IMG/VR virus record: IMGVR_UViG_2864926767_000001
DNA length: 64,000 bases
Direction: 5' to 3' (one strand)
Source of the DNA: a virus
The first letter of the stretch is position 1. Every line of letters starts with the position of its first letter. Of this stretch, positions 12,211 to 46,352 are shown one piece after another. The notes under the pieces are model-generated. The model saw only the letters and a program-made list of their open reading frames with translations, was not told the origin of the DNA and did not search any database. The translations under genes and the position numbers were made by a program.

Positions 12211-12825
12211 GTGATGCGCGCCAACCTCAATCGGCATCAGCCTGCCGGCCGGAAACAAGGAGAATCTGTGGACTGGAAGGAGCTTCACTCATTCCACATC
12301 GTGCACCGTGGTGAATATGACCTGCTCTTCGAGATGATCCTGCCCGACTATGGCGTCGACGGGCTGTTGGTGCGCCAGCAACCTAACGACATCCAGGTGA
12401 TCATGTCGGAAATCGTGAGACGCTGGATCGAAGAGGGACATGCTGAGTTCCTCACATACGTAGCCCAAGGACTGCGCTTGAAGAAAGCGCTCATCTCCAC
12501 CTCACGTGCGATTAGTCGGCGCCTCTCGGGAACGTTGGCCAAGATCAGTGAGCGGCAATGCCTTGGCGCACTCGTCGACCACGACGCTCAGGCCTTCACG
12601 GCCTACGTCACGAACCTTTGGGAGGGGTACAGAAACACGCAGACCTTTACCGACCTGGTGGAATCGGTGATGGAAGCGCCAGGCCGGCTAGATGAACTCA
12701 GGAAAGCCAAGGTAACGCGTTACCAGGCAATGCGGCTGCACGAGTGCTTGCCCTGTGACTGGCTGCTCGACCGTATGGGTCTAGCGTACCAGACAAGGGC
12801 AATGGCAAACGTGATGGGACTTTAG
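12211..12825 (+). CDS. Hypothetical protein
   Basis: ORF track; C-terminus resembles the shared motif (QTRAMANVMGL). Confidence 0.6.
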   Translation: MMRANLNRHQPAGRKQGESVDWKELHSFHIVHRGEYDLLFEMILPDYGVDGLLVRQQPNDIQVIMSEIVRRWIEEGHAEFLTYVAQGLRLKKALISTSRAISRRLSGTLAKISERQCLGALVDHDAQAFTAYVTNLWEGYRNTQTFTDLVESVMEAPGRLDELRKAKVTRYQAMRLHECLPCDWLLDRMGLAYQTRAMANVMGL

Positions 12826-13511
12826 CCGCCGTTTATCGTTTCCGAACTGAGGTCGGCGCCAACGAACTTGAGCAGTGCGATCTCATTGGAGCAGTAGGTC
12901 GAAGACAGGGTGAACGCCAGGTCTCTCCAGGCCTGCTGCTTCTGGATCATTGCGAACTGGCCGCTCGGCATGGCTTCGATCTCGGGGTCGAGAGCACGGC
13001 AAGCCCCAGTACCGATCAGTTCGAAGAACTCGTTCGGGAAGGCCGCGATGAACTTACCGATATCACCCTGCCGGCGGGCCCTGGAAGCCAGGACTTCCAG
13101 CAGACCGGCCAGCGATGTGTCTGGGTTGAACCTGGAGAGGATTTCTAGCCAATCAGGCTCCCACTTGTCGCCGCCGGTCTCAATGTGCTTGTACAGCATG
13201 CACGGGCGGCCGATTTCGACCATGTTCAGCCCGTCGTGCATCATTGCCCCATAGACCAGGTCGACCGGAAGTCCATGGTTCTCGATGCGGTCGACGAGGA
13301 AATCGCGGCCGGCGGCCGAGTACAGGAGGATCGCCAGCGTCCAGGGGCCAGTGCCGCTACCAGTCAGGTAGTCACGAATCCCTTCGAGGATGGGCTTGTT
13401 GGTGAACAACGGCTTAGCCATTGCATCGAACTGGGCGGCGTCTTTGATCAGGTCACCGTTGAGTTCAAACAACTTCCTCAGGCGGTGTTCGGAAAGCAGT
13501 GCGGGATTCAT
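12822..13511 (-). CDS. Hypothetical protein
   Basis: ORF track; GAGAGG SD. Confidence 0.65.
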   Translation of the reverse strand: MNPALLSEHRLRKLFELNGDLIKDAAQFDAMAKPLFTNKPILEGIRDYLTGSGTGPWTLAILLYSAAGRDFLVDRIENHGLPVDLVYGAMMHDGLNMVEIGRPCMLYKHIETGGDKWEPDWLEILSRFNPDTSLAGLLEVLASRARRQGDIGKFIAAFPNEFFELIGTGACRALDPEIEAMPSGQFAMIQKQQAWRDLAFTLSSTYCSNEIALLKFVGADLSSETINGG

Positions 13512-13590
13512 GTGTCACCTCTCGAATCCCTACAATTTACAGAATAAAGAGGGACTTTCAATCCCCCTTTTTCCATCATTCCGGTATAGC

Positions 13591-14706
13591 CTACATCTCG
13601 AATCCGCCAAGTTCTTTGGCTTTGGCTTTCTTTGGAACTGGTTCTTCCTGATGAACTTCGGCGTGTTCGCACTTTCTGATCAAGCCGAAAACATCGATGG
13701 GGTCATTTCCACGGGGCTCTGTGATTTTCCCGAGCGGAGATATTGTAACTTTCACCCCATCCTCCAGATTGAGCATGTAACCGGTGCCATTGCCGGCCGC
13801 ATACATTCCGATTAACCCCCCGCTCACCTGCATTTCCTTGGTCGGATCGATCTTCAGCAGATCCTGGAGTTCAATGGTTCCGTACCAGCACGGCAGGCTT
13901 GTGTATCCGCAGTTATCGTAGATGGTTGCTACGTCCTCAATAGGGACTACCGAGGCCCCAGGTGCGATGCCCATCTCATCATCGGCCTCGATCCACTTGT
14001 CGAACTCATCCATGTCCGTTGGTGCCTCGCCAGCGGTGATTGCTGCCAAAGGGCTTGCATTGAGGAGCCTGAACAGGGACTTGAGACCATCCGTTTTCAG
14101 GTGGTCGCCGGCATCCTGGAAGCCACCGTTTGCTTCGATGTCTCCAAAGTCTCGGTATTGGCGGTTGATATCTTCATCACCAGAAGGGGCAACGTAAACC
14201 AGCGGAATTCGCACGTTCTTAACCGCACTGAGAATATCTGATGGGTCGTTTTCAATGACCTTCTCTGTGATTGCTTGTCTGATTTCCGTCGAGAGATCGT
14301 CGGAGTCGACGTCACAACCTAGCTCATCGGAGATTGCACAGATTTTTTGGACAGCCTCTTTAACTTTTCTTTCGCTAAATACCATGTCTGAGACAACATC
14401 TTCCTGACTGTCTACCCCGAGGTTTCCCTCGAAGCCCATCTCAAGCAAGATGTCGGTGATGGTGTCACTCCATGACAGCTCGGGGGCTTTCCCAGATTTC
14501 GGCGAACGGTAGTCCGTCATTGCCTCGGCGACCTTCACCGACAGCATCTTAAGGTTGTCTCCCTCGATCCTGATGTCGTGCCAGTGGTAGCTGTCGAATT
14601 TCCCTGCAAGCTCGTCGATAAGATCACTCAGGCCGTCACGCCACGAGTCCAGGACGTCTACGTTCTCAATCTGGTACTCGTTCCCATCCAGCTCAATCGT
14701 TGTCAT
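13591..14706 (-). CDS. Acidic hypothetical protein
   Basis: GGAG SD before ATG 14706; ends KELGGFEM. Confidence 0.75.
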   Translation of the reverse strand: MTTIELDGNEYQIENVDVLDSWRDGLSDLIDELAGKFDSYHWHDIRIEGDNLKMLSVKVAEAMTDYRSPKSGKAPELSWSDTITDILLEMGFEGNLGVDSQEDVVSDMVFSERKVKEAVQKICAISDELGCDVDSDDLSTEIRQAITEKVIENDPSDILSAVKNVRIPLVYVAPSGDEDINRQYRDFGDIEANGGFQDAGDHLKTDGLKSLFRLLNASPLAAITAGEAPTDMDEFDKWIEADDEMGIAPGASVVPIEDVATIYDNCGYTSLPCWYGTIELQDLLKIDPTKEMQVSGGLIGMYAAGNGTGYMLNLEDGVKVTISPLGKITEPRGNDPIDVFGLIRKCEHAEVHQEEPVPKKAKAKELGGFEM

Positions 14707-14811
14707 GCCAGGCTCCAATTTTCACCAGTATGGAGAAAGCATGGAATTCAGCTCAACGGGTATTTGAACCTGGCGCCACTCCATCCCTAGAATTGGGTAG
14801 AGGGAGATTAA

Positions 14812-16736: not shown

Positions 16737-16744
16737 GGTAGGTG

Positions 16745-17020
16745 ATGGAAAACATTCAGAACGCGCTCAACACTCTGATGCGCGCCTGCTCCGATGCGAA
16801 CATGCCCGTGTTCGTTGCCTTCCAGCAGTCGGAGCACAGCGTGCGCGCCGTGACTGCCTGCGAGCAGCTGTCCAGTGGCGATAGCTTCAAGCTGGCCAGG
16901 AAACTCCTGAAGGCTGGGAGCCTGGACTCGTTCATGAAGATCGTGATCGCCGATGCCCAGAAGTCGGGCCATGATTCGCTGTTTCTCAAGTCGATTGGCG
17001 TTCCCACACAACCGAAGTGA
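16745..17020 (+). CDS. Hypothetical protein
   Basis: GAGG SD; operonic with upstream genes. Confidence 0.7.
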   Translation: MENIQNALNTLMRACSDANMPVFVAFQQSEHSVRAVTACEQLSSGDSFKLARKLLKAGSLDSFMKIVIADAQKSGHDSLFLKSIGVPTQPK

Positions 17021-17059
17021 CCAGGTGCCACCGCCCGGCAGCACCCTCACCCGCCCGGC

Positions 17060-17788: not shown

Positions 17789-17822
17789 CCCGAAACCGCA
17801 TTCCCCGTATGAAATCTTTGAT

Positions 17823-19299: not shown

Positions 19300-20427
19300 T
19301 CAGATATCCAAAACCGTCGCCATCATCTTCGTCTGCTGCTTCTCACTCATCTTCGGTGAGAAGTCCATGATGTTCTTCTCGATCAGCTCATCCATAACAT
19401 CCCGGCTCAGATGCTTGATGAACTGGTCGAAGCGGCCGAACTGCTGGAGGAGCTGAATATGCTCCCGCTTGAATCGCCTGTTGCCAGCGAATTGGGCCGC
19501 ATCTTTGGGGGTAGTCAGGTCGCTCTCCATCGCCCACCTGATGTGCTCTTCAAGCTTGCTATCCGTCGATGAAGCTAGGATAGCCCGGTTGGTAGGACAG
19601 GCATAAAGACCTGCTGCAACCATCACATCTCTGCAGCCTGGAAAGCGATCAAAGGTGAAACCGTTGAGAACCGAGACCATGCATGGTTTCGAATACTTAA
19701 AACAATGCTTACTCTGCACTAGCTTCGTGTAGTAGGCCTGCAGTTCCTTGCTCGGCTTGGCAGCCACTGGATGAAGCCTGGCGAACTCCTCAAGCCTCAT
19801 GCCAAGCACTCTCTCAAATGCGGCCTCCCACCGATAGATGGCCTGAGTGTCGCGATTTTCATATGCGACCTTATCCTGGATCTCCCCCGCACGAGCGATG
19901 GCTACCATCAGGGTCATGCAGACCTTGTCGTAATTCTCGGGCTTCTTGGCTTCTTTTGCCCAGGAACCCTTGAACAGCGCAGGGGCGGACTCGATCACGT
20001 AAGGCTCAACCATCATCCAGTTGCAGAGCTCTTCGAAGCTCTTGCCCGGCTGAATCGCAGCTCGCACAGCCTCATGCTGAAAACGCACGTTGTCCCAGTT
20101 GAGCGTGTTGAACTGCACCACACCAGGAGCAGTGACCTGCTTTATCCATTCGAGCATACAGGCCGTGTAGACCGGGATCATCTCCGGCTGCTCCTGGGTC
20201 TTTCGGGAAAGACGAAACAGAAAGTGCTCGACCTCCTTGTATCCCTTCTTGCTGCTCAAGGTGTACATCGCAACCTGCGGGAACTGCTTGAGGATCAGCT
20301 CCGGATCACGCGTGAACCCCATTTCGTTCAGGAGTGTGTCGCGATACTTTTTTTGTCCGTATTTGCGATCAATCGCTTCCTGGACTGCTTTGGCGTACAG
20401 CGGGTCGTCAGTGATTTTCCAAGGCAT
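19300..20427 (-). CDS. Hypothetical protein with shared C-terminal motif
   Basis: AGGAG SD before ATG 20427; ends EKQQTKMMATVLDI. Confidence 0.75.
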   Translation of the reverse strand: MPWKITDDPLYAKAVQEAIDRKYGQKKYRDTLLNEMGFTRDPELILKQFPQVAMYTLSSKKGYKEVEHFLFRLSRKTQEQPEMIPVYTACMLEWIKQVTAPGVVQFNTLNWDNVRFQHEAVRAAIQPGKSFEELCNWMMVEPYVIESAPALFKGSWAKEAKKPENYDKVCMTLMVAIARAGEIQDKVAYENRDTQAIYRWEAAFERVLGMRLEEFARLHPVAAKPSKELQAYYTKLVQSKHCFKYSKPCMVSVLNGFTFDRFPGCRDVMVAAGLYACPTNRAILASSTDSKLEEHIRWAMESDLTTPKDAAQFAGNRRFKREHIQLLQQFGRFDQFIKHLSRDVMDELIEKNIMDFSPKMSEKQQTKMMATVLDI

Positions 20428-20722
20428 GCTTCTGTGTCTCCTTCTTACTCTCACGGTACGGCTGGATAAGCCATCTCCACAAGCCGAGGAGGTTGGTCAG
20501 GAAGAAGGTCACCTCAAGAATCATCATGCCGAACGCATCCATTGAGCCGGCAAACAGGAAGAGTCCCCATGCCGATACGATGAAGAATGGCCAACCCCAC
20601 TTCGACCACCTGGTATTGCTGGCCACCATCAGTGCGCCAACCACACCGAAGACCGTACCGACCCACTGAGTGACCGTCTGATACAGGGTGTGAACCACTA
20701 CTGCGCATTCAGCTTCGACCAT
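20408..20722 (-). CDS. Small 3-TM membrane protein (PnuC/PQ-loop-like half transporter); start uncertain
   Basis: QWVGTVFGVVGALM..WGWPFFIVS..FFLTNLLGLWRW. Confidence 0.55.
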   Translation of the reverse strand: MVEAECAVVVHTLYQTVTQWVGTVFGVVGALMVASNTRWSKWGWPFFIVSAWGLFLFAGSMDAFGMMILEVTFFLTNLLGLWRWLIQPYRESKKETQKHALENH

Positions 20723-21477: not shown

Positions 21478-22308
21478 TTACAGGGAAAGTCCGTAGTTCG
21501 CCTTCTCCTGTTCGTGAGAAGACTTGATCGCTTTGAAGCCAAAGAACTCCGGGTCGACGTCGAACGATTGAACCAGGCGTTTCTTCGCAACCGGGCCATG
21601 CGCAACTTTGCACAGGTCATACAGCGACAGGTGGCGGCGATGCATCTGGCCGGCGAGGATCGCAGTCGCAACACGCTGAGTTTTCGGGTCTTCGGAATGG
21701 AAGAACTGCTTCACCCACTTGTCGACGGTCGCATCATCCTCGGCCAGGCCCAGGGCCTTCACGCCCCAGCGCTTGACGATGTTGCTCAGCGCCAACTCGT
21801 AACGCGAGGACAGTTTGAACTCAGGGTCGAACGCCCTCACCATCGCCTTGAACAGCTCAGGCTTACCATCACCATGCCCGGCGGATACCGCGCGGGTCAG
21901 GAAGTGGATAGCCGGAGTCAGCTTGGCGCCACGGTCTTTGACCAGGGCGGTTAGGTCATCGAGGGTAAACAGCGCCGAGTGGTCGGACAGGAAGACGTTC
22001 TCCTTCCTCCTCAGCATGTGGAGGTAGGTCGCCACCCCGTGGGCGTTCGGAGCTTCGGCCATGGCGCGGAAAATCCTGCGGTGGTCATCAGAGTCGATGA
22101 CATGCTGATTCAACTCCAGGATGAACTCGTTCCTCTTCTTGAAGACACTGGGTTCAGGGCTCATCCACGCGGAACTCTGGAAGATCTGCACGAGCAGGCC
22201 GTGCATACCCTCAAGAGAGTTTGTACCGAACAATTCGCCCATTCGACGAGTATCGAAAGTGGTCAGAATGTCCTTTATGGCTCTGTCGTCTAGCCTAAGA
22301 TTCATCAT
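21478..22308 (-). CDS. Hypothetical protein
   Basis: GGGAG SD; ends ANYGLSL. Confidence 0.75.
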   Translation of the reverse strand: MMNLRLDDRAIKDILTTFDTRRMGELFGTNSLEGMHGLLVQIFQSSAWMSPEPSVFKKRNEFILELNQHVIDSDDHRRIFRAMAEAPNAHGVATYLHMLRRKENVFLSDHSALFTLDDLTALVKDRGAKLTPAIHFLTRAVSAGHGDGKPELFKAMVRAFDPEFKLSSRYELALSNIVKRWGVKALGLAEDDATVDKWVKQFFHSEDPKTQRVATAILAGQMHRRHLSLYDLCKVAHGPVAKKRLVQSFDVDPEFFGFKAIKSSHEQEKANYGLSL

Positions 22309-22436
22309 GTAACTCCCACATTTGATTCATCGTACAACATGAGAGTCGCAGCTTACATCTAGCCAGCGCGCAATTTCCTATATATTGACACACTTGAGTG
22401 CCATGCAATAATCCATCGGACTTGCCGAGGATTGTC

Positions 22437-24386
22437 ATGCGCACATATACCAAATGGGCACTCGTGGTAGTTGCCGTCCTGATTGCCGCGCTCGCCGGGG
22501 CCTATCTCTACGTCAACAACGAAACCCCCGAAGCCACTAACCCCGGCTACGACATCAAGAAGCCAGAAGAAGTCTTTCTACTGAAATCTGGACAGGCTGC
22601 CAATATTGAAGCAATTGTCGTTGCTGGCAGCATTTACGATGGCGCGAAAGACATCGTTATCAAGTTCAAAGACACCAAGAATGCTGCGATCTACCAGCGA
22701 GTTGTCTACGATGGGTGGATTCGTTTTGAACAGAAGTTCCTTACTGGTGCGCTGAAAGAAAACCCCAGCATCGATTTCCGCATGATGGAATCGATGAGTG
22801 GCATCGGTAAGATTGTTGGCCAGGCCAATGACCCGACCGCCCTGATCACAGTTGGCAAGGCCAAAGGCGGTCTTGCAGACCTAATCAAAATCCTACTGCC
22901 GATGCTTGTCCTGGTAGGAGCACTGATCTACACGCTGCGCCTGCAGATGGGGATGGTGAGCAACTCCTTCGAGATTGCTCGCCCATCAGACATCAAGGAC
23001 ACCCTCGACGACATCGTCGGCATGCAGGACGTCAAGAAAGACCTGATGCAGCTGGCCGAGATGTTCACCAAGCCGCATGAGTACCGGGCGTTTGGTGCTG
23101 ACAAGCCGTTCAACGTCATGATGACCGGCGAGCCTGGCACCGGTAAGACGATGATGGCTCGCTGCCTGGCCAAGATGCTCAACGTGCCGATGATCTATGT
23201 CTCGGCCTCGAACCTGGAGTCCGGCTTTGTAGGTGGCGGTTCAGGCACCCTGCGCAAGATGTTCAAAGCCGCCATGAAGCTCAAACGCTGCATTGTCTTC
23301 ATCGATGAGGGCGACTCCTTGTTGGCAGCCCGCGCAGCGCATGGCTCCAACCGCTACGAGAACGACACCATGACTGCGCTGCTGGCCATCCTCAGTGGTG
23401 TCCAGGCACAGCAAGCAAAGGGCGTTATCTGGATCATCGCCAGTAACTTCGACGAAGGCACCATGAACATGGACGCGGCAATGCTGCGCCGCTGGCCCAT
23501 GAAGATCGGGTTCCGCCTACCCTCTTACCATGAGCGCCGGGAGCTGCTCACCCGCCTCCTGGAGCCATTCCGAAGCAAACTGGGCGCAGACATTAATCTT
23601 GACCACCTGGCGACCATCACCGGGGGCATGAGTCCGGCTAAGCTCGGGGATATGACCACCAGGGCGTCTCTGATCGCCATCCAGGAAGAATCGAAGATTA
23701 CCCAGGACATCCTTGTCCGGGCCTACGAACGCCTCATGATGGGTAACACAGACCGTTCGCCAAAGGGTACTGCTGACTCAAAACGCCGGATCATTGCCAT
23801 CCACGAGACTGGCCACTTCATCATGGAACTCCATCACGCCATGATCGCGGCCAACAACGATCTGAGCCTGCTGCCGGAGAAGTTGCGGGTACTTAAAATC
23901 TCCACTGAGGCCGTACCGAAGATCGGCGCCGAAGGCTACGTCCTTAGCCGCAACGAGGAATCCCCTCTGCGTACCCGCGATCAGCTCGAGGAGCACGTAG
24001 CGGAGCTTTACGGCGGCATGGCCAACGAAGAACTGCACTTCCACGGAGGCGGGGTCACCACTGGCGCGCACCAGGACATTCGACAGGCAACCCTGATCCT
24101 CAACACCATGTACAGCGAGATGGGCTTCTACAGCCACTCCAAGGTCAACCTGCGCCTACTGGCCGGCGAACGTGGCGCGGTGGATGATACGACCCGGATG
24201 AACATCACCAACAAATCCGAGGAGATCTACCGGCAGACCCTGTCCACCTTGCGCAGCTACCAGGCACTCTCCGACATCCTGGTGGAGCACCTGATGATCA
24301 ACCATGTGATGACGGTCAGGGAGGCAATCCCAATCGTAAGCGAGTACTATAAGGGGAAGAACTCGCCGCTTCGCCGGTACAGTTAA
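22437..24386 (+). CDS. ftsH: FtsH-like membrane AAA+ zinc protease (peptidase M41)
   Basis: Two TM segments; Walker A GEPGTGKT; Walker B FIDE; HETGH; GGMANEE; GAHQD. Confidence 0.88.
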   Translation: MRTYTKWALVVVAVLIAALAGAYLYVNNETPEATNPGYDIKKPEEVFLLKSGQAANIEAIVVAGSIYDGAKDIVIKFKDTKNAAIYQRVVYDGWIRFEQKFLTGALKENPSIDFRMMESMSGIGKIVGQANDPTALITVGKAKGGLADLIKILLPMLVLVGALIYTLRLQMGMVSNSFEIARPSDIKDTLDDIVGMQDVKKDLMQLAEMFTKPHEYRAFGADKPFNVMMTGEPGTGKTMMARCLAKMLNVPMIYVSASNLESGFVGGGSGTLRKMFKAAMKLKRCIVFIDEGDSLLAARAAHGSNRYENDTMTALLAILSGVQAQQAKGVIWIIASNFDEGTMNMDAAMLRRWPMKIGFRLPSYHERRELLTRLLEPFRSKLGADINLDHLATITGGMSPAKLGDMTTRASLIAIQEESKITQDILVRAYERLMMGNTDRSPKGTADSKRRIIAIHETGHFIMELHHAMIAANNDLSLLPEKLRVLKISTEAVPKIGAEGYVLSRNEESPLRTRDQLEEHVAELYGGMANEELHFHGGGVTTGAHQDIRQATLILNTMYSEMGFYSHSKVNLRLLAGERGAVDDTTRMNITNKSEEIYRQTLSTLRSYQALSDILVEHLMINHVMTVREAIPIVSEYYKGKNSPLRRYS

Positions 24387-26441: not shown

Positions 26442-26500
26442 GCCGGTTGCACGGGGTCTTGCTCCATACCTATTCTGATTCAAACGGAGGATCAGACCCC

Positions 26501-26878
26501 ATGAAGAGCCCACGCAACCAGATCGAAGTGCAGTGCGCACCGCATGACAGCGACTACCTGGCCTACGTAGACCACGTCTACGACTGCTGCGATGCCGAGC
26601 TGCCATCGATCAGAGAGCACAACGAAAAGATCACCGCCCTCCTGGAAGGTGCTGAAACGCCGAAGGATGCGAAGGCAGAAATCACCGGCCACGTGCAGAA
26701 GTACGTCGAGAAGATCGCCCGCCGCGAAGGCGTACTGGTCGGCTCCCCGGCCGGCAACTTCAAGGCCATCGCCGAGCGCGTGGCTGACGATTGGATCGCC
26801 GGCTACGAAGAAGAGCAGGCCTACATCGCCAACGCCAGCAAGCAACGCGCCAACGAAGGCTCCGGGCTCGGCCTGTAA
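26501..26878 (+). CDS. Hypothetical protein
   Basis: GGAGG SD; ends GSGLGL. Confidence 0.75.
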   Translation: MKSPRNQIEVQCAPHDSDYLAYVDHVYDCCDAELPSIREHNEKITALLEGAETPKDAKAEITGHVQKYVEKIARREGVLVGSPAGNFKAIAERVADDWIAGYEEEQAYIANASKQRANEGSGLGL

Positions 26879-26994: not shown

Positions 26995-27636
26995 ATGACG
27001 ACCAGAACTCCAAGAACGATCACCATGTGGCACGGCTCCCGGCGCTGGGTTGGAAAACCTGAGATCCGAAAGCCCGCACAAGGTCGCGCCGAACACGGGC
27101 CTGGCATCTACACGTCAAACGACTACGAAAGGGCTCTGAAATACGCCCAGGGCGGTGGTGTTGTTCGCAAAGTGGAGTTTTCACCCAGGCTGCTGCTCGA
27201 GGATGCGGCTATTCCCCTGGAAAGTGCAGTGGGCTTCGTCCGGAAGCACCTTAAAGGGGAAAAGCGCGAAACTGTCATCGCTGACCTCATCCGTATTCAG
27301 GAGAGACGCATCAACTCCCTTTCTGGCAAGACGTTTTGCGGTAAGGGCGACCACTTCATCATCGCCGAGGTACTCCGCAACCTCTTGGTCAACAACGATA
27401 CCTGCATCGGTAAAACCGGCGTCGCGCTAGCTGATTATTTCGTCAGCCACGGGATCGATGCAGCCATCTCGCACATTCAGCGCGACGAGTACTGGGCTGT
27501 GATATTCAACCCAGCCTGCATCCTGTCAACGACGCCAGTCAGACAGTCTGAAATCCACTTCTCCGAGTACATGCTGCCCAGCCCTATCGAGCCGGAACCA
27601 CGCAGCAAGGAAGCGGACGCGGGACTGTCCCTCTGA
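26995..27636 (+). CDS. ADP-ribosyltransferase-like (ART-PolyVal-type) protein
   Basis: WHGS..HGPGIYTS..ALKYA pattern; ends DAGLSL. Confidence 0.55.
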   Translation: MTTRTPRTITMWHGSRRWVGKPEIRKPAQGRAEHGPGIYTSNDYERALKYAQGGGVVRKVEFSPRLLLEDAAIPLESAVGFVRKHLKGEKRETVIADLIRIQERRINSLSGKTFCGKGDHFIIAEVLRNLLVNNDTCIGKTGVALADYFVSHGIDAAISHIQRDEYWAVIFNPACILSTTPVRQSEIHFSEYMLPSPIEPEPRSKEADAGLSL

Positions 27637-28539: not shown

Positions 28540-30351
28540 TTACAGGTTAAATGTCTCGATCAACGTGGTGGTCAGCGTTGCGTCGGCGAGTCGGTCGACG
28601 TAGGGCTCAAGCTCTTCCGGAGTGAACACCTGGCCCAGGATCACTTTAAGGCGGGGTGTCTTGCACTTCGGAATGAGCTCATCGAGGGGGAACGTGGCTA
28701 GGTACAACTCGTAGATGTTGTCATCTCGACGTGGCGACGCTTTTTTGAGCGCTTCTGCAAGCGATTCTGGCCTTGGAAGTTCGCCGTACCAACCTCCCAG
28801 TCGCAGCCACGAAATTCGGTCTGAATTCGTTAGGTTTTGAAAGTTCTTCCGCTTCAAATTGTGCTTGTGCGGCACTACCTTAAACTTAGCAGCTACGAGC
28901 TCACTAATGGCAGAATGTTCAAATTCGAGATCGCGAGTATCGAAATTCATTCCGAAGTTGTCGCGAGCATAAACAAGAACATTGACAGGGACATCCTTGT
29001 TCGACTTCCTGAGCGCAGCCTTGATAAAATCATCGTCAACAACAGATCGCAGGCTTCCATCAGAGAGAGCCATGCTTGAAATTTCTATAGGCGTAGTAGA
29101 GTCAATTATCGGCAGATCAAACTTGTTGTGCCCCATAGTATCTTTGTGCAACGCTAGGAACTTCGCATTGCAAAGCAATTGCTCAAGCCTTTCACAGTCA
29201 ATAGTTGAAGCTTTTGACTCCTTTTCAGCAGAACAAGTCAACGCAAGCTCTTCTATATCGATGAGAGCAATAGAATACCCTGCGGGAGCTTCGTGCCCGA
29301 TACAGGCATTCACACTGAGAATCTGAGAGAGGAAGCCAGATCCAATCTGGTTCGTATATCCAAACTCTAGACCTGCCACGTAATGCTGCCCCTCAACAGC
29401 ATAAGATGTGCTTTTAAGCATTGCACCAATGCTAACAAAGCAGGCGGCCGTATCAATCACTCCGGTTTCTCCCCGCACATTCCTTTCATGGGAAAGGAAC
29501 GCAGCAAGTGGGGCGTAGTGATGCTTAAGGCCGTCTACTCCATAGATCATCGCTTGCCATGGCAACACGCATTTCTTGCTGAACCGGTTTTCGTCTTCAT
29601 TCTTGATCAGGCAAGGAACATGTGAGACAAGTCGACCATACAGGGCGTCCCCCTGCATGCTGTGGATCGCGTGGAATAGGCTAGGGTTCCGAATCACTCC
29701 ACCTGCCACCACAGGAAGATCTTGAATCTCCAGCCTGTTGGTGTCAGCAAGATTCGTTGTCACAAGCCCATTTGTTGAGTTAGTAATTGAGCCGATCCTT
29801 CCTACTGCGGCTGATGCAGAGCATCCCATTGCAATCAAGGCTGTAAGACACTTCTTTACATCTTTAGACGAGAAAAACCTGAATGGCTCGCTTGTCTTGA
29901 ATCTTCCTCTGATTCGCGTTGTTTTAAATTCCGTTTCATTAGAAACTAAAACTTCAATGGACTCTTTTGACGCAAATGGCTCAAGCAATTCAAACATCTC
30001 TACATCGACATTGTATGCAGCAAGAGCGGTCAAATCATGTATATTCTCTCCTACGTGCCGAATGCACAATTGGAGATACTCTCTATCCAGAGACTCTCTT
30101 GTTCTGTAGTCGCAAATAGCGTCCTGTATGAATCGAACTGCGTCCTCGGAACTCAAGCCATAGAGATTAAGGAGATCCTGGCGAACGGGAGAGTCAGGCA
30201 TCGAGTAGTGAAGCCTGACTTCGACCGGCAAGTCCGCTAGTCTCTTGTATACTTGAGGCAGGATCAGCCTGACGAAATCCCTCGCAGCATCAAGGTTGCC
30301 GTTCTTGATCTGCTCATCGATGAAACCGGCCGTAAAATCAGTCATATTCAA
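28540..30351 (-). CDS. AT-richer hypothetical protein with shared C-terminal motif
   Basis: 603-aa ORF; ends DATLTTTLIETFNL. Confidence 0.8.
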   Translation of the reverse strand: MNMTDFTAGFIDEQIKNGNLDAARDFVRLILPQVYKRLADLPVEVRLHYSMPDSPVRQDLLNLYGLSSEDAVRFIQDAICDYRTRESLDREYLQLCIRHVGENIHDLTALAAYNVDVEMFELLEPFASKESIEVLVSNETEFKTTRIRGRFKTSEPFRFFSSKDVKKCLTALIAMGCSASAAVGRIGSITNSTNGLVTTNLADTNRLEIQDLPVVAGGVIRNPSLFHAIHSMQGDALYGRLVSHVPCLIKNEDENRFSKKCVLPWQAMIYGVDGLKHHYAPLAAFLSHERNVRGETGVIDTAACFVSIGAMLKSTSYAVEGQHYVAGLEFGYTNQIGSGFLSQILSVNACIGHEAPAGYSIALIDIEELALTCSAEKESKASTIDCERLEQLLCNAKFLALHKDTMGHNKFDLPIIDSTTPIEISSMALSDGSLRSVVDDDFIKAALRKSNKDVPVNVLVYARDNFGMNFDTRDLEFEHSAISELVAAKFKVVPHKHNLKRKNFQNLTNSDRISWLRLGGWYGELPRPESLAEALKKASPRRDDNIYELYLATFPLDELIPKCKTPRLKVILGQVFTPEELEPYVDRLADATLTTTLIETFNL

Positions 30352-30880: not shown

Positions 30881-32356
30881 TTAGAGATCGAAGCCGGATA
30901 CGGCCTTGCTTGTCATGATCTCGTCGGACTTCCACTCCACCTCGTCCCAGAGATCGGCTGGTATGGTGTCGGAGTAGAGGGAGTGAAGGGTCTGGTAATC
31001 CTCGTAGGATAGCTCTGCGAGCCCTTCCCTACCCCTCTCGCAGGAGAATACTGTAAGCGTCAGTTGGCCTAGAGACTTCGGCCTTTTCTTCATGGATAGG
31101 CCAATCTTCAGGACATCGACGGACAGCCCATTGCTTAAGAGCCCCAGATCAATGGGGGCTTGCTGATGGTAGAGGCTCACTGCGATCAGGAGATCGCTGA
31201 AACGACAGTCACTGATCGCTTCGGGCTCTTTGTCCAGGAGAACAGCTAAGGCCAGGCGCATGTGTCCCCTGGCTTCAGCTTCCGTCCGATTGTACCGAGT
31301 GGCCAGTAGAGCAAGATTCTTATCGCGACCACTGTCACTGCGAAGAAGCTCCATGAATTTCACTGCAGCCACGTGCCTGCTCAAGGCTCGCTCACCCATC
31401 AGTGTCTCCACAGGGATCTGGGCGGCGCCTAAGGCAGTGATAAAGCTTCGATACTCATCAAGCGAGAAGACTCTGTTCTGCTCCATTGCTCGCATGAAGC
31501 CCTTGGCGAAGATCTTCATCGCCTCCGGTGGAGCATTGCATTGGGTCAGGTCAATTGTCCTATGACAATCCTCCATGGCTCTGGCCAAGCGCCCGGCGAA
31601 GTACTTTGCGCCGGCCACTTTCATGAAAAGTGACTCGCTCTGCAGCCGTATGACCTCAAGCATCTCGAACATTTTCCAGCTACCTGCGGATGTCACGAAC
31701 AGTGACAAGCAGACACCTAGGTCATCAAGAGACTCCTCGCTAGTTTTCTGAGGCCTCACATAGTCGCGGAGTGCCTCTGGCTGGCCTAGCATGAAGTCGA
31801 GGACGTAGGCTGAGTCTCCGACGTCCACAAGCGCTCGAACGACTATCTGGAACGCTTCCTGTGCCTCGCAGATCGAGCCACCAAGCTTGTCGAGAGGCGC
31901 TGCAATTACGATGCTATCGAGCATCTTCCGCAGGAGCCCAATATCGCAACTGGAGAGATCCTGGTTCTTTATGAACGGCTCGCATCCCTCGTCCAGGAGG
32001 AAGTGCATCAGCGGGATAACATCGCGATCCCCCCGCAGATGCGTACTGAGGCAGGCAGAGAACGTACTCTGGAAGTCTGAGGCTTTACGCCCCAACTCGA
32101 TAGCGATCTTGACCGTCTCGAAGTTCATGAGCCCCGGCCATCTGGCACAGAGACCGTCCACGTGACGCAGTGCAGTGGCCTGGATCATCGACACAAGGCG
32201 CTTGTCGCCGGCAGCCTCTATGAGGCCCTGCTGCACAATGCTGTGCAGCGCGCGGAAGCTCGCCTCGAGCCAGGCAGTGGTGGAGTCGTCTTCCACACCT
32301 AGAGGGGATTGATGCAGGGCAGCACTCAGTCTTTGACTGATCTCGTAAGCGGTCAC
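30881..32356 (-). CDS. Hypothetical helical protein with shared C-terminal motif
   Basis: GAGGAGG SD, GTG start; ends DEIMTSKAVSGFDL. Confidence 0.8.
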   Translation of the reverse strand: MTAYEISQRLSAALHQSPLGVEDDSTTAWLEASFRALHSIVQQGLIEAAGDKRLVSMIQATALRHVDGLCARWPGLMNFETVKIAIELGRKASDFQSTFSACLSTHLRGDRDVIPLMHFLLDEGCEPFIKNQDLSSCDIGLLRKMLDSIVIAAPLDKLGGSICEAQEAFQIVVRALVDVGDSAYVLDFMLGQPEALRDYVRPQKTSEESLDDLGVCLSLFVTSAGSWKMFEMLEVIRLQSESLFMKVAGAKYFAGRLARAMEDCHRTIDLTQCNAPPEAMKIFAKGFMRAMEQNRVFSLDEYRSFITALGAAQIPVETLMGERALSRHVAAVKFMELLRSDSGRDKNLALLATRYNRTEAEARGHMRLALAVLLDKEPEAISDCRFSDLLIAVSLYHQQAPIDLGLLSNGLSVDVLKIGLSMKKRPKSLGQLTLTVFSCERGREGLAELSYEDYQTLHSLYSDTIPADLWDEVEWKSDEIMTSKAVSGFDL

Positions 32357-35631: not shown

Positions 35632-37179
35632 CTACATATCGAAGACCTGTGTCATCCTATTCGTCATGAGAGAGTCGTCTCGGAACGGGATTGAATCGAG
35701 ATACTCATTGTCAATGGCGTTACCTGCAGCATCCCGGAGGGCCTGCAGCTCAGAAGCATCCAACCAGGCCATGCTTCTCTTCGTCTTCGGCGCCCTGAGG
35801 AATGGAACGATCTGGTTTTCGGCAATCCACCCTGCAGATGCCGCATGGCCTCCGAAGCCGCGAATCAGAGCTTTAAGCAGGTGCCGGGGGATGCCTCGCT
35901 CTGTAATTCCCACCTTCGGAAGAAGGTTTTCACCTTCCGAAATGGCCGCTCCAACGGCGACTAGCTCGTAGTCGCGCGTGGCGTACCTCGAATCACGGTG
36001 CTCACTCAGTTTCATGAGATACAGAGCGTTGGTGGGCAACATCTCTGACAGCTCCAGTACATCGGCGCCAGGCCGCCTGGCTAGCGCCAGGAACTCATCG
36101 ACCCCTTTGAGACCATTCTTGAGATCACCCTTGATGACTGCATAGTGATCAGGAAGGTTCTTTCTAGTTACGCACGAAAGTAGCCTTTCGAAGGTCTCGT
36201 AAGGGCCATCGAAATGCTCCCACAGAGCGCTCCGAATTCGTTGCCCCACGATGACCTGCATAGTCTCGTATTTGAAATCAACAGAAGCAATAAGGTCTTC
36301 AATGTCTGTGTACCTATTAATAAGAGCACAGAATTCATCCGACCCAACCAGCTCTCCATAGAGAGCTGGGGCAGCACTCTTGACTCCGAACGCAATGTTT
36401 CTGGAAAACTCGTGGGAAAGTATCAATATTACGGCCTGGGCTGACATGGACTCATCACAGTCTTTCTCTACGAGCCGACGCGAAGGTCTTGCCTGCCTCG
36501 AAAGTTCTACCAAGAATCTGGCATTTGTCTGAATGAACTCAATTGCAGCGACTGTTCCTTCCTTTCCACCTACGAATGACATGTCGACCAAGACATGCGT
36601 CATTTGGGTCAGAAGAAGCCGTGGATCAAAACGATAGTGGTTTTCAAGCAGGCTATTCAGTAGCCTACTTAGCAGAGCCGTAACTTTAACTGTCTGTTCG
36701 TCAGAATGCGTTGGCGGAAGAAGCTGAGGTTCACGTCTATGCAGTGGATCACTCGGAACCCCTAGAATTCCGCCTAGTTCAATTCGCATCTCAGCATAGA
36801 GTCTGGTCACGTCCGGCTGCTTTACAGATTCCATCTCACGGATGATGGTCAGGTAGACATAGCCATCGTTTGGCCCCGTCTGCCCTCCTATCGCAATAGG
36901 ATCAGGGATGACGCTAATCGCTTGAGCGAGAACATCGTGCCTGAACAGATAACCGAAGCCGTCGATCAGAGACCGGCGAACAGCCGCGCCCGCCTCGGCG
37001 TAAACGATCTGATTGCTTTGCACCGACAGGTCAGCAGAAGCATGCCAGGAGTGGATGATCTTCACCGCCTGGATCATTTGAAGGATGGTTTGATCTGAAT
37101 CCCTGCGGGAGAGGTAATCCAAGGCCTCATTGAGGTCGGTTACGGCTTTCCAGACCTCAAACTGACTGACTGCACTCAT
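35632..37179 (-). CDS. Hypothetical helical protein with shared C-terminal motif
   Basis: 515-aa ORF; ends DSLMTNRMTQVFDM. Confidence 0.8.
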   Translation of the reverse strand: MSAVSQFEVWKAVTDLNEALDYLSRRDSDQTILQMIQAVKIIHSWHASADLSVQSNQIVYAEAGAAVRRSLIDGFGYLFRHDVLAQAISVIPDPIAIGGQTGPNDGYVYLTIIREMESVKQPDVTRLYAEMRIELGGILGVPSDPLHRREPQLLPPTHSDEQTVKVTALLSRLLNSLLENHYRFDPRLLLTQMTHVLVDMSFVGGKEGTVAAIEFIQTNARFLVELSRQARPSRRLVEKDCDESMSAQAVILILSHEFSRNIAFGVKSAAPALYGELVGSDEFCALINRYTDIEDLIASVDFKYETMQVIVGQRIRSALWEHFDGPYETFERLLSCVTRKNLPDHYAVIKGDLKNGLKGVDEFLALARRPGADVLELSEMLPTNALYLMKLSEHRDSRYATRDYELVAVGAAISEGENLLPKVGITERGIPRHLLKALIRGFGGHAASAGWIAENQIVPFLRAPKTKRSMAWLDASELQALRDAAGNAIDNEYLDSIPFRDDSLMTNRMTQVFDM

Positions 37180-39645: not shown

Positions 39646-39670
39646 CAATAACTAGAAAAAAGAGGCTTTC

Positions 39671-40201: not shown

Positions 40202-40230
40202 AAAAGGGGGCCGATGGCCCCCTTCTCTTT
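40200..40230. terminator. Bidirectional terminator between convergent genes
   Basis: AAAAAGGGGGCC-GAT-GGCCCCCTTCTCTTT. Confidence 0.7.
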
Positions 40231-40244
40231 CCCTGCTCCGCCGT

Positions 40245-42347
<2,103 letters not shown>

Positions 42348-42365
42348 TTAAATCAGGAGCCCAAG

Positions 42366-44210
42366 ATGTCCACTTACAGCCCCCCTTCAAACGAGCTGGT
42401 CGCCGAACTGTTCAATCAGGCAGAAACGGAGGGGCGAGCTGACCTGCTTGAAGCGCTCGCCCCCTTCGTGGAGCTTGAAAAGTTGATCAAAATTGCGAAG
42501 CGCCAGGAAGGGAATGTGGGGCCGGCGCTACTGCGCGCGCTCAAGCGTGACTCCTACACTAAAAATGAGATCGATGAGCTGCTCTCTAAGGCCTTCGATG
42601 ACAATCAAACCTATCTGGACGCCATCGTCGAGCACATCGCCGGAACCAGTGACCACGGTGGTCGACACTTTGCCCTGATAGAGCTGTTGGGCAGAGGGTT
42701 TCATGCAGAGGCGCTGCATATTGCCAAGAGCTGTGATAGCACCAAGGAAGTGACCGAATATTTGAGGCAAAGAATTGATCGCCTCTCTGTAACTGGCGAT
42801 CCACACGCCGCGTCCTTTTCTAAACTTGGGGTTCCTTATAAGCTTCGCAAGGAATCAGTAGAACTCTTCAGTTTGCTAGATATCGACCACCATAAAGGCC
42901 TAGTTGGACAAGAAGTTCAATATAGGTATGGCGAAAATAAGAAAACCTATTGGAGTGAAGATCGCTATAAAGCAACCTTCGATCTCGTAGCCAGCACAAT
43001 CACGAAAGAACACATGAAGACTCCAACTCTGGTATCCAAACCAGATGGCGTCCGCATCATCTTTGGCGAGCTGATCGCCGCCGCCATCGCTGAGCGGGAT
43101 CGCATCCAAGGTCTCGGCGCCTGGCACAACGAAGCATTTCCTGAGTTCTACCCTGTCCTCTTCGCCCCAGAGGATGAAGAGGCTATCGTGCTCGCAGGCG
43201 CTATCCCAATGCTGCCGGCAGCCGCATTTTCCGCGACACCTACTCGAGGCTTCGTCGATTCAGCCGGGTTGATCAGCAAGAAAGACTCGTTCATGGCGAC
43301 CAGCTTCCTCCCGCATGAAGTGATTGGGGCACTCCAGAAACCTGGCAGCTTCAGGCTCGCATTGATTCACCACGAAAAGGCCCGCGTGATGCAGATCAAT
43401 CACCAGGGAGATCATGCAAAACTTACAGCCGCAATGCGTCTTCACCGCCCTCTGACTCCAGTGATGGCGAAGGGCGACCCAACCGACATTAATGAATTCA
43501 AAGGCATGTGGCGGATCAGTACGCACCTTTATGTAAAAGGTCATCCGATCTGGGAAAATGACATCTACCCTTCACTTCTTCCTCACACTCTTCACGAGGC
43601 GCTGCAACTCTATACCCCTGCGGAAATTGAACATATCAACCACCACTACAATCCTGATCGCGGTGCAAGCCCGCATAAAATGTATATTCGTCAGGATAAA
43701 TGCTCGTATGCCTGGCAGATTGAGAGAGCCAGATCGAATTTTGCTGAATTCAAAGCAAGATTTGGCTTCATTCCTTCTATTAAGCTCGAGGTAGACGAAG
43801 AATTTCTTCTCGAGCTTGCTAAAGCCAAACTGGATCTTGGGCCCAACGTATCGATCAGCTACCCGGACAACAGACCCAGGGTTGATTTCGATATCTACAG
43901 GCTAGAGGGCACCCTTGGGGTAACCTCCAAATACACCCAAGACCTACCAGGGCTGAGCATGAAGGCATTGCTTGCAAAGGCAGCCAAGAACATCAACACG
44001 AAGGACTTGGGGCAGGAGTCGCTTGCCCGCACCCTGGGCTTCATCGACCGTTACCCGCGTGAGGAGATCCTCAAAGCGATCACCACCGTCGGCCAGGTCA
44101 AGCTGGCGTACAAACATTTGGGCCTCACCGAAGACGAGTTTGAAACTCTTCCGACCAAGACCAAGGACGCGTACTACACCGGGGAGGCGATCAATACCTT
44201 CGGCATCTGA
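42366..44210 (+). CDS. Hypothetical protein with shared C-terminal motif
   Basis: AGGAG SD before ATG 42366; ends DAYYTGEAINTFGI. Confidence 0.8.
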   Translation: MSTYSPPSNELVAELFNQAETEGRADLLEALAPFVELEKLIKIAKRQEGNVGPALLRALKRDSYTKNEIDELLSKAFDDNQTYLDAIVEHIAGTSDHGGRHFALIELLGRGFHAEALHIAKSCDSTKEVTEYLRQRIDRLSVTGDPHAASFSKLGVPYKLRKESVELFSLLDIDHHKGLVGQEVQYRYGENKKTYWSEDRYKATFDLVASTITKEHMKTPTLVSKPDGVRIIFGELIAAAIAERDRIQGLGAWHNEAFPEFYPVLFAPEDEEAIVLAGAIPMLPAAAFSATPTRGFVDSAGLISKKDSFMATSFLPHEVIGALQKPGSFRLALIHHEKARVMQINHQGDHAKLTAAMRLHRPLTPVMAKGDPTDINEFKGMWRISTHLYVKGHPIWENDIYPSLLPHTLHEALQLYTPAEIEHINHHYNPDRGASPHKMYIRQDKCSYAWQIERARSNFAEFKARFGFIPSIKLEVDEEFLLELAKAKLDLGPNVSISYPDNRPRVDFDIYRLEGTLGVTSKYTQDLPGLSMKALLAKAAKNINTKDLGQESLARTLGFIDRYPREEILKAITTVGQVKLAYKHLGLTEDEFETLPTKTKDAYYTGEAINTFGI

Positions 44211-44228
44211 TCATCTTCGAGACCTAAC

Positions 44229-44252
44229 AACGGCGCCAGAAGGCGCCGTTTT
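44229..44252. terminator. Bidirectional terminator
   Basis: AACGGCGCC-AGAA-GGCGCCGTTTT. Confidence 0.7.
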
Positions 44253-44274
44253 CTATTGACCTATGAAGATCAGA

Positions 44275-45159
44275 TCAGATGTCCAGGATCGCAGACATGG
44301 CCTGGGTCTGGCCGGCGTCACCCATCTTCTCAACCAGGTCAGCTCGGCCGAGCTTGAAGGCCATGAGCCTGACCTCGTCAGTGTCGAGCTGCGAATCGAC
44401 CTCCCAATCGTTCATCTTCAGGATGTTGTCCACCACCACATGGGCCGCACTCTTGAAGTGGTCTTTAAGAGCATCACCGCCATCGAAGCCCTTTGTCTTC
44501 CAGGCCATCCGCCGCATGAGTTGCACCCAGCTCGGGTTAGGAGACTTCTCTCCCACCTCAATCCCGATCTCTCTGCGGATTTTCAGAAGGCACGCTTCGT
44601 CGTCGCCGGCAGCGATGGCTCCCGACAGGAACTGCTTGTTGCGCAGGTAGGTGGACACCATCTGATCCCGATAGCGGCCGGCGAGTAGTCCGCTGTCTTC
44701 GAGCTTCTGGGGGTCGAACTCAGAGAGTGTTCCGACAACCTGTACCAGGCCGTAATGCATCTCCAGCAGATCCATGATGTCTCTGGCCAAGCGAGCGCGG
44801 CCCTGGCGGATCGACTCGGACAAGGTCGACTGCCAATCGGACGCTTTCACCTGCCCGGTCAGGTCAGCAACAGCCCATAGCTTCAGCTGCACCCTGGCGA
44901 AGGGCTCAGGCATCGAAAGAATCGTTCGGGTGAATATCCCCTTGCCCAGGCCCGAAGACTTCACCACGGCGTCCGCAAGGGCCCTGTAGCGTTCCTCATC
45001 CGCAACCCGGCAGACGTTCTTCCCATCACGAAGCAGACAAGTGCTTACCGCGATACCGAACCCCTTGCTTCGCGATACCTGCTCGGCAAAGACGTTGAAA
45101 GCCTCGGTAGGTGAGCCCTCAGGGCTCAGAAGCTCGATGAGTAGGGTGGCATCAACCAT
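44275..45159 (-). CDS. Hypothetical helical protein with shared C-terminal motif
   Basis: GAGGTG SD; ends DAGQTQAMSAILDI. Confidence 0.8.
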   Translation of the reverse strand: MVDATLLIELLSPEGSPTEAFNVFAEQVSRSKGFGIAVSTCLLRDGKNVCRVADEERYRALADAVVKSSGLGKGIFTRTILSMPEPFARVQLKLWAVADLTGQVKASDWQSTLSESIRQGRARLARDIMDLLEMHYGLVQVVGTLSEFDPQKLEDSGLLAGRYRDQMVSTYLRNKQFLSGAIAAGDDEACLLKIRREIGIEVGEKSPNPSWVQLMRRMAWKTKGFDGGDALKDHFKSAAHVVVDNILKMNDWEVDSQLDTDEVRLMAFKLGRADLVEKMGDAGQTQAMSAILDI

Positions 45160-45167
45160 CTGTCACC

Positions 45168-46352
45168 TCAGAAATCCAGGTTCACAAGCATTGCTTTGGT
45201 CTGCGCATCATCAGAGGCATGACTGAAGAGCTCAGAGCAGTCAGTCATGATGAATGGCATCACCACCGTCAGGGCCTCCGGGGTCTTGTTGCGGAACAGC
45301 TTGTTTGCCTCCACGCCTTCGAGGATCTCGTCGTGGCACGCGATCAGCTCTTCTTTCAGCCCTTCCTCAGCGGTCGGCCACTTCAGCCCCGTCGCCTTGG
45401 TTAGGTCTGCCAGGAAGCCCAGGTACGACTTAACCTGCGAGTTGAACTCCTTCCCAGTCGCTCCCTCTCGCTTCGCGAGCTGCAGCATGTGGGCGTTACC
45501 CCTAAGCGCCACCACCAGGTCTGTGATCCTGGTCATCAGCGTCTTTTTCAGATCCGTGAGCTTGCTGCAGGAAAGCCCATCATTGGCCAGAGCCATAAGG
45601 CGTGCCGTGGCCTCGGGTGAACCACTCCGTGCGGCCTGGGCGCGGAGCTCGGGCAGGTTCGCCCAGAACTGCATCACCAAATCCTGGAACACCGGAGTCG
45701 TGAAAGCTTTACGATTGGCCGCAATCAGCTCGGCCACGCCCAAGTTGAACTCGATGTCATCGTAGGTTTTGGCATCGCGAAGCCCACCCTTGGCACCCAA
45801 CATCTCGTACTTCTTGGTGGCGGGCGCCAGATCGTAGATAACACGGGCGTTTTCAAAGTCGCTGGCATCCAGCATGCCCTTAACCACAGTAGCCGCGAAG
45901 CCGGCGGCCGCAGGCGCTTTGAGGAATTCATCTTGATCAGCCACTTTTGCCAGGGCAATGGCCAGGCGCGGGGTGATAGGCCTGCACAGACTTTCCGGCC
46001 ACTTCTTCGGCCTTCCCGCCTCAGAACCAAGGTGCTGGCCAATACCGGATACCAGGCCAAACGCCAGGTCGTACTTCCTGTCGTAGTTTCGGGGCTTTGA
46101 CTCTACGAGAGCCTCCAGCAGCGCTTCAATTTCATCGATAGCGCCAACCTGGGCCAACAGAGTGCCAACACTCCTCTGGTTCAGGGTTCCTGCCCCGCTA
46201 TGAAGCGGCTTATCGCCCAGGCACGGGAATGCTTCACTCACTCGAGCTTCCAGATCAGCCGAAAGCTCTTCGCTGATGGCCAGAGGGTTGTCCCAGATGT
46301 AATCCCGGCAGAACTGCTCAAGGCGGGCCCTCTTTTTGTCATCAATTGTCAT
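45168..46352 (-). CDS. Hypothetical helical protein with shared C-terminal motif
   Basis: Ends DDAQTKAMLVNLDF. Confidence 0.8.
   Translation of the reverse strand: MTIDDKKRARLEQFCRDYIWDNPLAISEELSADLEARVSEAFPCLGDKPLHSGAGTLNQRSVGTLLAQVGAIDEIEALLEALVESKPRNYDRKYDLAFGLVSGIGQHLGSEAGRPKKWPESLCRPITPRLAIALAKVADQDEFLKAPAAAGFAATVVKGMLDASDFENARVIYDLAPATKKYEMLGAKGGLRDAKTYDDIEFNLGVAELIAANRKAFTTPVFQDLVMQFWANLPELRAQAARSGSPEATARLMALANDGLSCSKLTDLKKTLMTRITDLVVALRGNAHMLQLAKREGATGKEFNSQVKSYLGFLADLTKATGLKWPTAEEGLKEELIACHDEILEGVEANKLFRNKTPEALTVVMPFIMTDCSELFSHASDDAQTKAMLVNLDF

Follow-up and report, generated by a model that had tools for sequence, protein, structure and literature searches.

What purpose does a short C-terminal tail serve that is shared, residue for residue, by eight otherwise dissimilar proteins of one stretch of DNA? 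The question is raised by a stretch of 64,000 nt catalogued as IMG/VR record IMGVR_UViG_2864926767_000001, referred to in the following as the window. It corresponds to G000:C1:48247-112246, i.e. to a part of contig C1 in an assembly of 7.58 Mb and 83 contigs. A first-pass annotation, made from the letters alone, had quoted the last 14 residues of eight proteins and proposed that they form one motif. Listing and translating the open reading frames (ORFs) returned all eight C-termini exactly as quoted, including a threonine at position -10 (the last residue being -1) in eight out of eight. The positions under which the proteins had been filed are the low end of each ORF, except that 42366 is an internal start of the ORF 42309-44210. 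For the two bearers on the plus strand the tail is thus found at the high-coordinate end. The eight bearers are:

12211..12825, plus strand, ORF of 204 aa; tail codons 12781-12822, LAYQTRAMANVMGL; score 22.7 in the position-specific scoring matrix (PSSM) described below
19300..20454, minus strand, ORF of 384 aa; tail codons 19303-19344, EKQQTKMMATVLDI; PSSM score 33.6
28540..30351, minus strand, ORF of 603 aa with a GC content of 0.48; tail codons 28543-28584, DATLTTTLIETFNL
30881..32356, minus strand, ORF of 491 aa; tail codons 30884-30925, DEIMTSKAVSGFDL
35632..37179, minus strand, ORF of 515 aa; tail codons 35635-35676, DSLMTNRMTQVFDM
42309..44210, plus strand, ORF of 633 aa; tail codons 44166-44207, DAYYTGEAINTFGI
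44275..45159, minus strand, ORF of 294 aa; tail codons 44278-44319, DAGQTQAMSAILDI
45168..46352, minus strand, ORF of 394 aa; tail codons 45171-45212, DDAQTKAMLVNLDF

Scanning the window for further tails yielded none beyond these eight. The tail of 12211..12825 carries Leu in place of D/E at -14, and the start codon of this ORF is uncertain as its 5’ end overlaps other ORFs. None of the eight proteins matched Pfam, and the 384 aa protein matched neither PHROGs nor PADLOC either. The 515 aa protein is probably all-helical; a look-up in the ESM-Atlas gave only helical-repeat leads below threshold. A word-index homologue search with the 294 aa protein returned the query itself and nothing else.

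That the replicon is a plasmid, as previously assumed, is confirmed. The chromosomal contigs of the assembly have ~66% GC and comprise 6.57 Mb. Another 23 contigs (C1, C18, C32, C36, C40, C43, C49 and others) have ~57.5% GC and comprise 1.0 Mb. DotM, DotL and ParM encoded there are 51%, 62% and 56% identical to the respective proteins of pMPPla107. Hence the low-GC contigs represent a divergent megaplasmid of the pMPPla107 family with a size of ~1 Mb.

The tail is far more abundant on this plasmid than the seven to eight cases originally reported. Considering ORFs of at least 100 aa, the regular expression of the first-pass annotation matched 45 of 2,513 ORFs on low-GC contigs and none of 20,386 on chromosomal contigs, so the motif is by no means equally frequent in chromosomal C-termini. 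A degenerate DNA pattern of the tail gave 33 matches on low-GC contigs and none on the chromosome. In 33 congeners as well as in 400 Pseudomonadaceae genomes, the same pattern had 0-2 matches in each, no more than the reversed control. Using an iterated PSSM, 72 of ~1,012 non-overlapping plasmid ORFs were found to carry the tail, with scores from 5.9 to 34. The separation is wide: no other plasmid ORF exceeds -7.6, and 1.4 is the highest score on the chromosome. The chromosome, sister-genome and reversed-pattern controls exclude a chance origin of the motif. Together, the tail genes account for 11% of the plasmid DNA.

The consensus of the tail reads [SP]-[DE]-x3-T-x2-[MA]-x3-[FLM]-[DEG]-[ILMF]-COOH. 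Among the 72 tails, [SP] is present at -15 in 50, [DE] at -14 in 64, T at -10 in 70, [MA] at -7 in 63, [LFM] at -3 in 71 and [DEG] at -2 in 64, and the last residue is hydrophobic (I, L, M, F or V) without exception. Conservation beyond -16 is family-specific only. The last 20 residues have a net charge of -1.8 in tailed proteins compared to +0.28 in other plasmid proteins. Owing to the -14/-10/-7/-3 spacing, the conserved residues fall on one face of a helix that follows a Ser/Pro-Asp cap. Base composition is a less consistent trait. Several bearers had been described as richer in AT than their surroundings, and four of the eight window genes indeed have a GC content of 0.48-0.53 as opposed to 0.575 for the plasmid, but all 72 tail genes average 0.572 compared to 0.577 for the other genes.

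The bodies preceding the tail were compared by BLASTP after removal of the tails. The 72 proteins fall into 26 families, namely two arrays of 33 and 13 members, two pairs and 22 singletons, and the singletons include all eight window proteins. Neither BLASTP nor an iterative HMM search with tails trimmed links any of these eight to another. The impression that the bodies are unrelated was therefore correct, and full-length paralogy of the window proteins is ruled out. The larger array family (famA) comprises 33 tandem paralogues of ~550-620 aa with a median identity of 25%, located at C1:364-428 kb and C40:9-58 kb (loci L009 and L011); the smaller one (famB) is a tandem array of 13 members. 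Motifs common to famA are 'LCRTT' with an invariant Cys and 'WFDDxLCWAS...HP'. A famA model built with AlphaFold2 (AF2; predicted local distance difference test, pLDDT, of 81) matches no PDB entry and, in AFDB, only unnamed members of the same family, which comprises 169 representative clusters among 1.84 billion proteins. In this model a Pro-Asp break sets the tail apart as a terminal helix of its own (residues 537-547).

The same lack of annotation applies to the tailed proteins at large. Pfam matched none of 17 tailed proteins of the present plasmid and none of 83 family representatives from pMPPla107, and none of 24 tailed proteins was matched by PHROGs or PADLOC. In contrast, 15 out of 20 untailed neighbours have clear domains. 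Structural genes of the type IVB secretion system (T4BSS) described below and paralogues of housekeeping genes lack the tail. A transmembrane-like segment is absent from 64 of the 72 bearers and in none of them is one located at the N-terminus; recognition of the tail would hence take place in the cytoplasm.

The tail is conserved as a peptide and not as DNA. Thr(-10) is encoded by ACC (39), ACG (17), ACA (8) and ACT (6), and where residues are identical the third codon position agrees in 46% only. Since all synonymous codons are used, selection acts on the peptide rather than on a DNA repeat. No conserved DNA is found downstream of the stop codons. Scrambled synonymous codons together with the lack of downstream conservation rule out a repeated DNA element or a terminator.

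Does the tail occur on related plasmids? pMPPla107 was assembled as a whole (949 ORFs). Here 158 ORFs (17%), belonging to 86 BLASTP families, end in R(-11)-[DE](-10)-x-x-[FLMI](-7)-[GAS](-6)-x-D(-4)-L-G-L-COOH, 142 of them with the exact ending DLGL. A DNA pattern for DLGL matches 136 times on pMPPla107 and 46 times on pBASL58, with 0-1 matches in controls. It is absent from pPL1, the FeN3W plasmid, a Vibrio plasmid and the present megaplasmid. The DNA pattern of the tail with threonine at -10 (T-type) is likewise absent from pMPPla107, pBASL58, pPL1 and the FeN3W plasmid.

The two tails nevertheless correspond to each other. All five T-tailed proteins having a pMPPla107 homologue match DLGL-tailed proteins, with the ends aligned residue for residue, e.g. 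a 383 aa protein ending in ...VSDKLWTKAATAVLDI versus a 382 aa protein of pMPPla107 ending in ...VSKKLHDKNFGADLGL. Untailed proteins match 226 untailed and only 5 tailed pMPPla107 proteins. Three window genes can be aligned in this way. The distant pMPPla107 homologues of the 19300-20454 product end in DLGL. The product of 42309-44210 is homologous over its full length to a 624 aa pMPPla107 protein ending in ...TKRFATDLGL (23% identity over 629 aa), and that of 44275-45159 has a 322 aa homologue ending in ...RDKAFGHDLGL. Such homologous ends in the same register identify the T-type and DLGL tails as one and the same feature. Between them -7, -3 and -1 are kept while -14, -11, -10, -4 and -2 have switched in concert.

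The famA family extends this picture. C-termini of the form ...[DE]-[LFI]-G-[LMI] or D-F-[GE]-L are seen in its homologues on pPL1, pBASL58, pMPPla107 and the FeN3W plasmid. Among 1.84 billion proteins, 145 of the 150 best hits of the famA profile have a Phi-x-Phi-COOH ending (Phi, hydrophobic). These best 150 comprise at least five dialects: the T-type, ...DLGL, ...[KR]GRxLExxLGL, ...RVKxAGxxLSL and ...RVxxVxSDFN[IL]. No contig mixes dialects, and this holds for a 903-kb contig of P. aeruginosa as well. Sample DRR294288 harbours a T-type array with 92% DNA identity to contig C40. One famA copy on a Logan contig of this sample (L130:8261-9979) has lost the tail and ends in ...KPTTDGPGL, with 11 neighbours keeping it; this copy could be either a naturally occurring allele without the tail or the product of a frameshift.

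On sequence comparison, the tail of the window proteins is one lineage's version of a tag that is found throughout the pMPPla107 megaplasmid family. The tag exists, it is plasmid-specific and under selection at the peptide level, it keeps the same register in homologues, and it changes in concert within each lineage. Concerted, element-specific change over dozens of unrelated proteins is what would be expected of a signal read by one plasmid-encoded receptor that all of them have to fit. The earlier proposal of a docking helix is borne out to the extent that the tail behaves as one, with strong selection on the peptide and concerted change per plasmid lineage. We found no paper describing the tag; publications on pMPPla107 mention neither an effector nor a C-terminal motif, and a literature search for 'DLGL' in connection with secretion gave nothing relevant. 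New are the T-type dialect, the residue-by-residue correspondence of dialects in homologues and the occurrence of at least five dialects within one family.

Which receptor could this be? A T4BSS of the Dot/Icm type including DotL and DotM is encoded on contig C1, the contig of the window, beyond the window end (C1:112246):

C1:124026-126554, DotL-like type IV coupling protein
C1:126991-128334, DotM homologue (Pfam DotM_C, 3.5e-32; Legionella DotM structures 6EXA and 6SZ9 at 1e-20)
C1:213-235 kb, DotH/IcmK, DotI/IcmL and IncI-like thin-pilus genes
C1:122483-123805 (L017:10237-11559), minus strand, conserved 440 aa protein directly downstream of DotL

DotM is 48-51% identical to its counterparts on pMPPla107, pBASL58, pPL1 and the FeN3W plasmid, four complete Pseudomonas megaplasmids of ~0.9-1.2 Mb. 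The 440 aa neighbour of DotL has 13 homologues among 5.8 billion proteins, all with at least 39% identity and many invariant residues; those located on long contigs are all found on ~0.9-Mb Pseudomonas contigs. Its AF2 model is poor (pLDDT 65), and weak OB-fold-like and helical matches are uninformative. The region around DotL and DotM (C1:117729-143061; L017, L018) furthermore encodes SecA, FtsZ, a ParM-like actin, guanylate kinase, a class I ribonucleotide reductase and RecD-like as well as RecQ helicases. Elsewhere, on the low-GC contig C61 (14699-19248), a second and shorter coupling protein (611 aa, TraG-D_C) adjoins a 905 aa ORF. It may be part of a further transfer system resembling type IVA, carried either by the plasmid or by an inserted element.

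Based on these data, we give an even chance to the tail being a translocation signal that is read by, and co-evolves with, the DotL/DotM coupling complex of the plasmid's T4BSS. The last 14-16 residues would then form a short amphipathic helix reaching from the [SP]-[DE] cap to the free carboxylate, with D/E(-14), T(-10), M/A(-7), L/F(-3) and the hydrophobic last residue as its conserved face. One plasmid-encoded receptor would recognise this tag on ~70 unrelated, soluble and uncharacterised proteins. The likeliest candidate is the coupling complex (DotL/DotM with their partners) of the Dot/Icm-type machine, and the tagged proteins would be translocated from the donor cell into conjugation recipients or other target cells. 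Both the T4BSS as reader of the tag and the export of its bearers are what we infer. More tentatively, and with somewhat less than an even chance, 7-17% of the genes of pMPPla107-family plasmids could constitute an export proteome. Dozens to more than 150 fast-evolving ORFans, an arsenal as large as that of Legionella, would be delivered by the conjugation machine, with or without DNA, into recipients or other cells by means of a plasmid-private C-terminal code. This code would be read by the own type IVB coupling complex only, its dialects preventing hijack by related plasmids.

Published work is compatible with such a reading in several respects. A complete Dot/Icm-like system was described on pMPPla107 by Baltrus et al. 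2011, who found no effectors by homology and left protein secretion open; more than 70% of the genes of this plasmid have no known function (PMC3136466). In Legionella, DotM is a receptor for acidic C-terminal peptides, and transport is abolished when the final L of the OSS consensus is replaced by E (PMC5802825). The authors of that study propose that DotM interfaces in other species have co-evolved with different tails (PMC5802825).

Several points weigh against a role of the T4BSS. The 882-kb plasmid of Vibrio parahaemolyticus, which keeps the gene order ParM-DotM-DotL, shows neither a famA homologue nor a sharp C-terminal motif in its first 400 kb. To judge from the 400 kb examined, a T4BSS of this lineage thus need not be accompanied by the tag. 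A search with PF03432 for a relaxase, the natural protein substrate of such a machine, found none. By comparison with known Dot/Icm signals, which are degenerate and Glu-rich, the tail has a sharp consensus and no more than one or two conserved acidic residues. To our knowledge, export of 7-17% of a plasmid proteome is unprecedented for a conjugation system. Moreover, the paralogue arrays are devoid of interleaved small immunity-like genes.

The same observations can be read in other ways. The tail could be a docking peptide for a plasmid-encoded hub unconnected to secretion, i.e. a scaffold, a cytoskeleton (FtsZ, ParM-like actin, SecA) or a compartment, which would localise or assemble proteins in the host cell like the peroxisomal signal PTS1, encapsulation peptides or PDZ ligands do. 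Ligands of the PDZ class II or tetratricopeptide repeat (TPR) type typically show such exact registration on the carboxylate and a Phi-x-Phi-COOH core. Concerted, lineage-specific change merely requires some plasmid-encoded partner and not the T4BSS in particular, paralogues of cellular machines are numerous on the plasmid, and the Vibrio megaplasmid has the DotM-DotL module without the tag in the part examined. On the other hand, the acidic-plus-hydrophobic layout of the C-terminus fits T4BSS signals better, and we know of no such tag for any bacterial intracellular hub at comparable scale. No candidate receptor is at hand, no search for PDZ, TPR, encapsulin or bacterial microcompartment shell genes having been made. 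Altogether we regard a hub of this kind as rather unlikely. Doubts are stronger for a degron or adaptor tag, also suggested by the first-pass annotation, by which a plasmid protease such as the FtsH-like one encoded among the tail genes in the window (22398-24386) would keep the accessory proteome short-lived. C-terminal tags are a classical route to AAA+ proteases and many degrons end in a hydrophobic residue. However, the tails recognised by ClpXP, FtsH and Tsp are non-polar, e.g. the LAA ending of ssrA, where Asp blocks recognition. Here -2 is D, E or G in 64 of 72 tails, -4 is D in pMPPla107, and polar residues are common at -5, so the last 3-5 residues are not consistently non-polar as in tags of the ssrA type. 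An acidic residue or Gly at -2, unlike in known non-polar C-terminal degrons, renders a degron less likely. The pMPPla107 homologues of the proteins from the FtsH-like operon are untailed, and one would not readily expect 70-160 ORFan families that diversify rapidly to retain, all of them, one strict degron. We therefore consider delivery to a protease improbable.

Least of all do the data speak for a generic physical element, i.e. a membrane-targeting amphipathic helix or a self-associating coiled-coil peg, or for mimicry of a ligand of a host hub such as the sliding clamp; the chance of either is very small in our view. The position of -14, -10, -7 and -3 on one helix face and the terminal helix of the famA model would suit the former, but neither an invariant Thr(-10) nor the coordinated switch to D/E(-10) and D(-4) on another plasmid would be required of a membrane helix. 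As to the clamp, its binding motif in DNA polymerase IV has a C-terminal ...LGL, which the DLGL dialect resembles, and -LGL-COOH of other dialects can be likened to the hexapeptide clamp motif QLxLxL. Yet the conserved Q-L is absent, and the L-D-I ending of the T-type does not fit QL[SD]LF, being without the final aromatic/Leu pair. If a single plasmid encoded more than 70 clamp ligands, replication would be poisoned, and host hubs, conserved across Pseudomonas, cannot explain plasmid-specific dialects.

Among the tail genes of the window, plasmid-borne paralogues of cellular machines are located:

22398-24386, plus strand, FtsH-like AAA+/M41 protease
27640-28539, minus strand, calcineurin-like phosphoesterase
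40245-42341, minus strand, full-length NAD-dependent DNA ligase
56338-57462, minus strand, TrfA-type replication initiator

Besides the tail, a second C-terminal signature is seen in ~12-18 plasmid ORFs. Here a charged linker rich in Lys and Glu leads to a terminal G-[LFY]-[SGE]-[LMIF]-COOH. Its bearers in the window are:

8846-10798, minus strand
13591-14718, minus strand
21478-22308, minus strand
26447-26878, plus strand
26995-27636, plus strand
46367-48088, minus strand
56338-57462, minus strand, the TrfA-type initiator mentioned above

Endings are DSGLSL, GGFEM, NYGLSL, GSGLGL, DAGLSL and SGYGM, while TrfA ends in PQLGI. Unlike T-type bearers, several of these proteins have known domains (LysM, GHKL ATPase, TrfA). 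The pMPPla107 homologues of the bearers do not have the second signature.

The tag provides a concrete handle on the question from 2011 whether the pMPPla107 system transfers DNA only or secretes protein as well (PMC3136466). It supplies a list of candidate substrates, 72 on the present plasmid and 158 on pMPPla107, as well as a minimal peptide for reporter fusions, and the natural dialects permit specificity-swap tests. Should it serve the T4BSS, no type IVB signal known so far would be as sharply defined, and conjugative megaplasmids of environmental and clinical Pseudomonas would be shown to transfer large cargoes of protein. With a different reader, it would mark a new intracellular sorting system. 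In either case it is the first common property for a large block of genomic dark matter.

How does the tail compare with known systems? PTS1 (-SKL-COOH) and PDZ class II ligands (Phi-x-Phi-COOH) resemble it in their registration on the C-terminus and in a short consensus by which one receptor serves dozens of unrelated proteins. They are eukaryotic or periplasmic, however, and the tail is longer (14-16 residues, helical); we know of no PTS1-like receptor on plasmids. XVIPCD, found in antibacterial effectors of the type IVA secretion system of Xanthomonadales, is likewise a C-terminal element on diverse bodies and is read by the coupling protein. It is a folded domain of ~120 residues accompanied by an adjacent immunity gene, whereas only ~16 residues are common across families here.

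The tail also has similarities to the Dot/Icm signals of Legionella and Coxiella. Both occupy the very end of proteins that are soluble and cytoplasmic (somewhere in the last ~20-35 residues there, the last 14-16 here) and both have hydrophobic residues at -3, as in RalF, and at the end; L/F/M at -3 in 71 of 72 tails is a likeness in sequence. Either repertoire is large and made up of unrelated, mostly ORFan proteins, often in paralogue families, and a DotL/DotM coupling complex is encoded on the same replicon. In the region of the Glu-rich E-block read by DotM (~-10 to -17), the tail has a single conserved D/E (-14) and no run of Glu; it has a further D/E at -2 and is acidic overall. Different are the exact-register consensus with a near-invariant Thr(-10), the element-specific dialects and the location on a conjugative megaplasmid of a free-living Pseudomonas instead of in an intracellular pathogen. 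A further comparison is with the DLGL tag of pMPPla107 and pBASL58. Where that tag has D/E at -10, the present tail has T; its R-[DE] is replaced by D/E further upstream and its G at -2 by D/E, and Asp at -4 is missing. Plasmid family, register, the Phi(-7)/Phi(-3)/Phi(-1) skeleton and bearers that are ORFans or members of tandem arrays are common to both.

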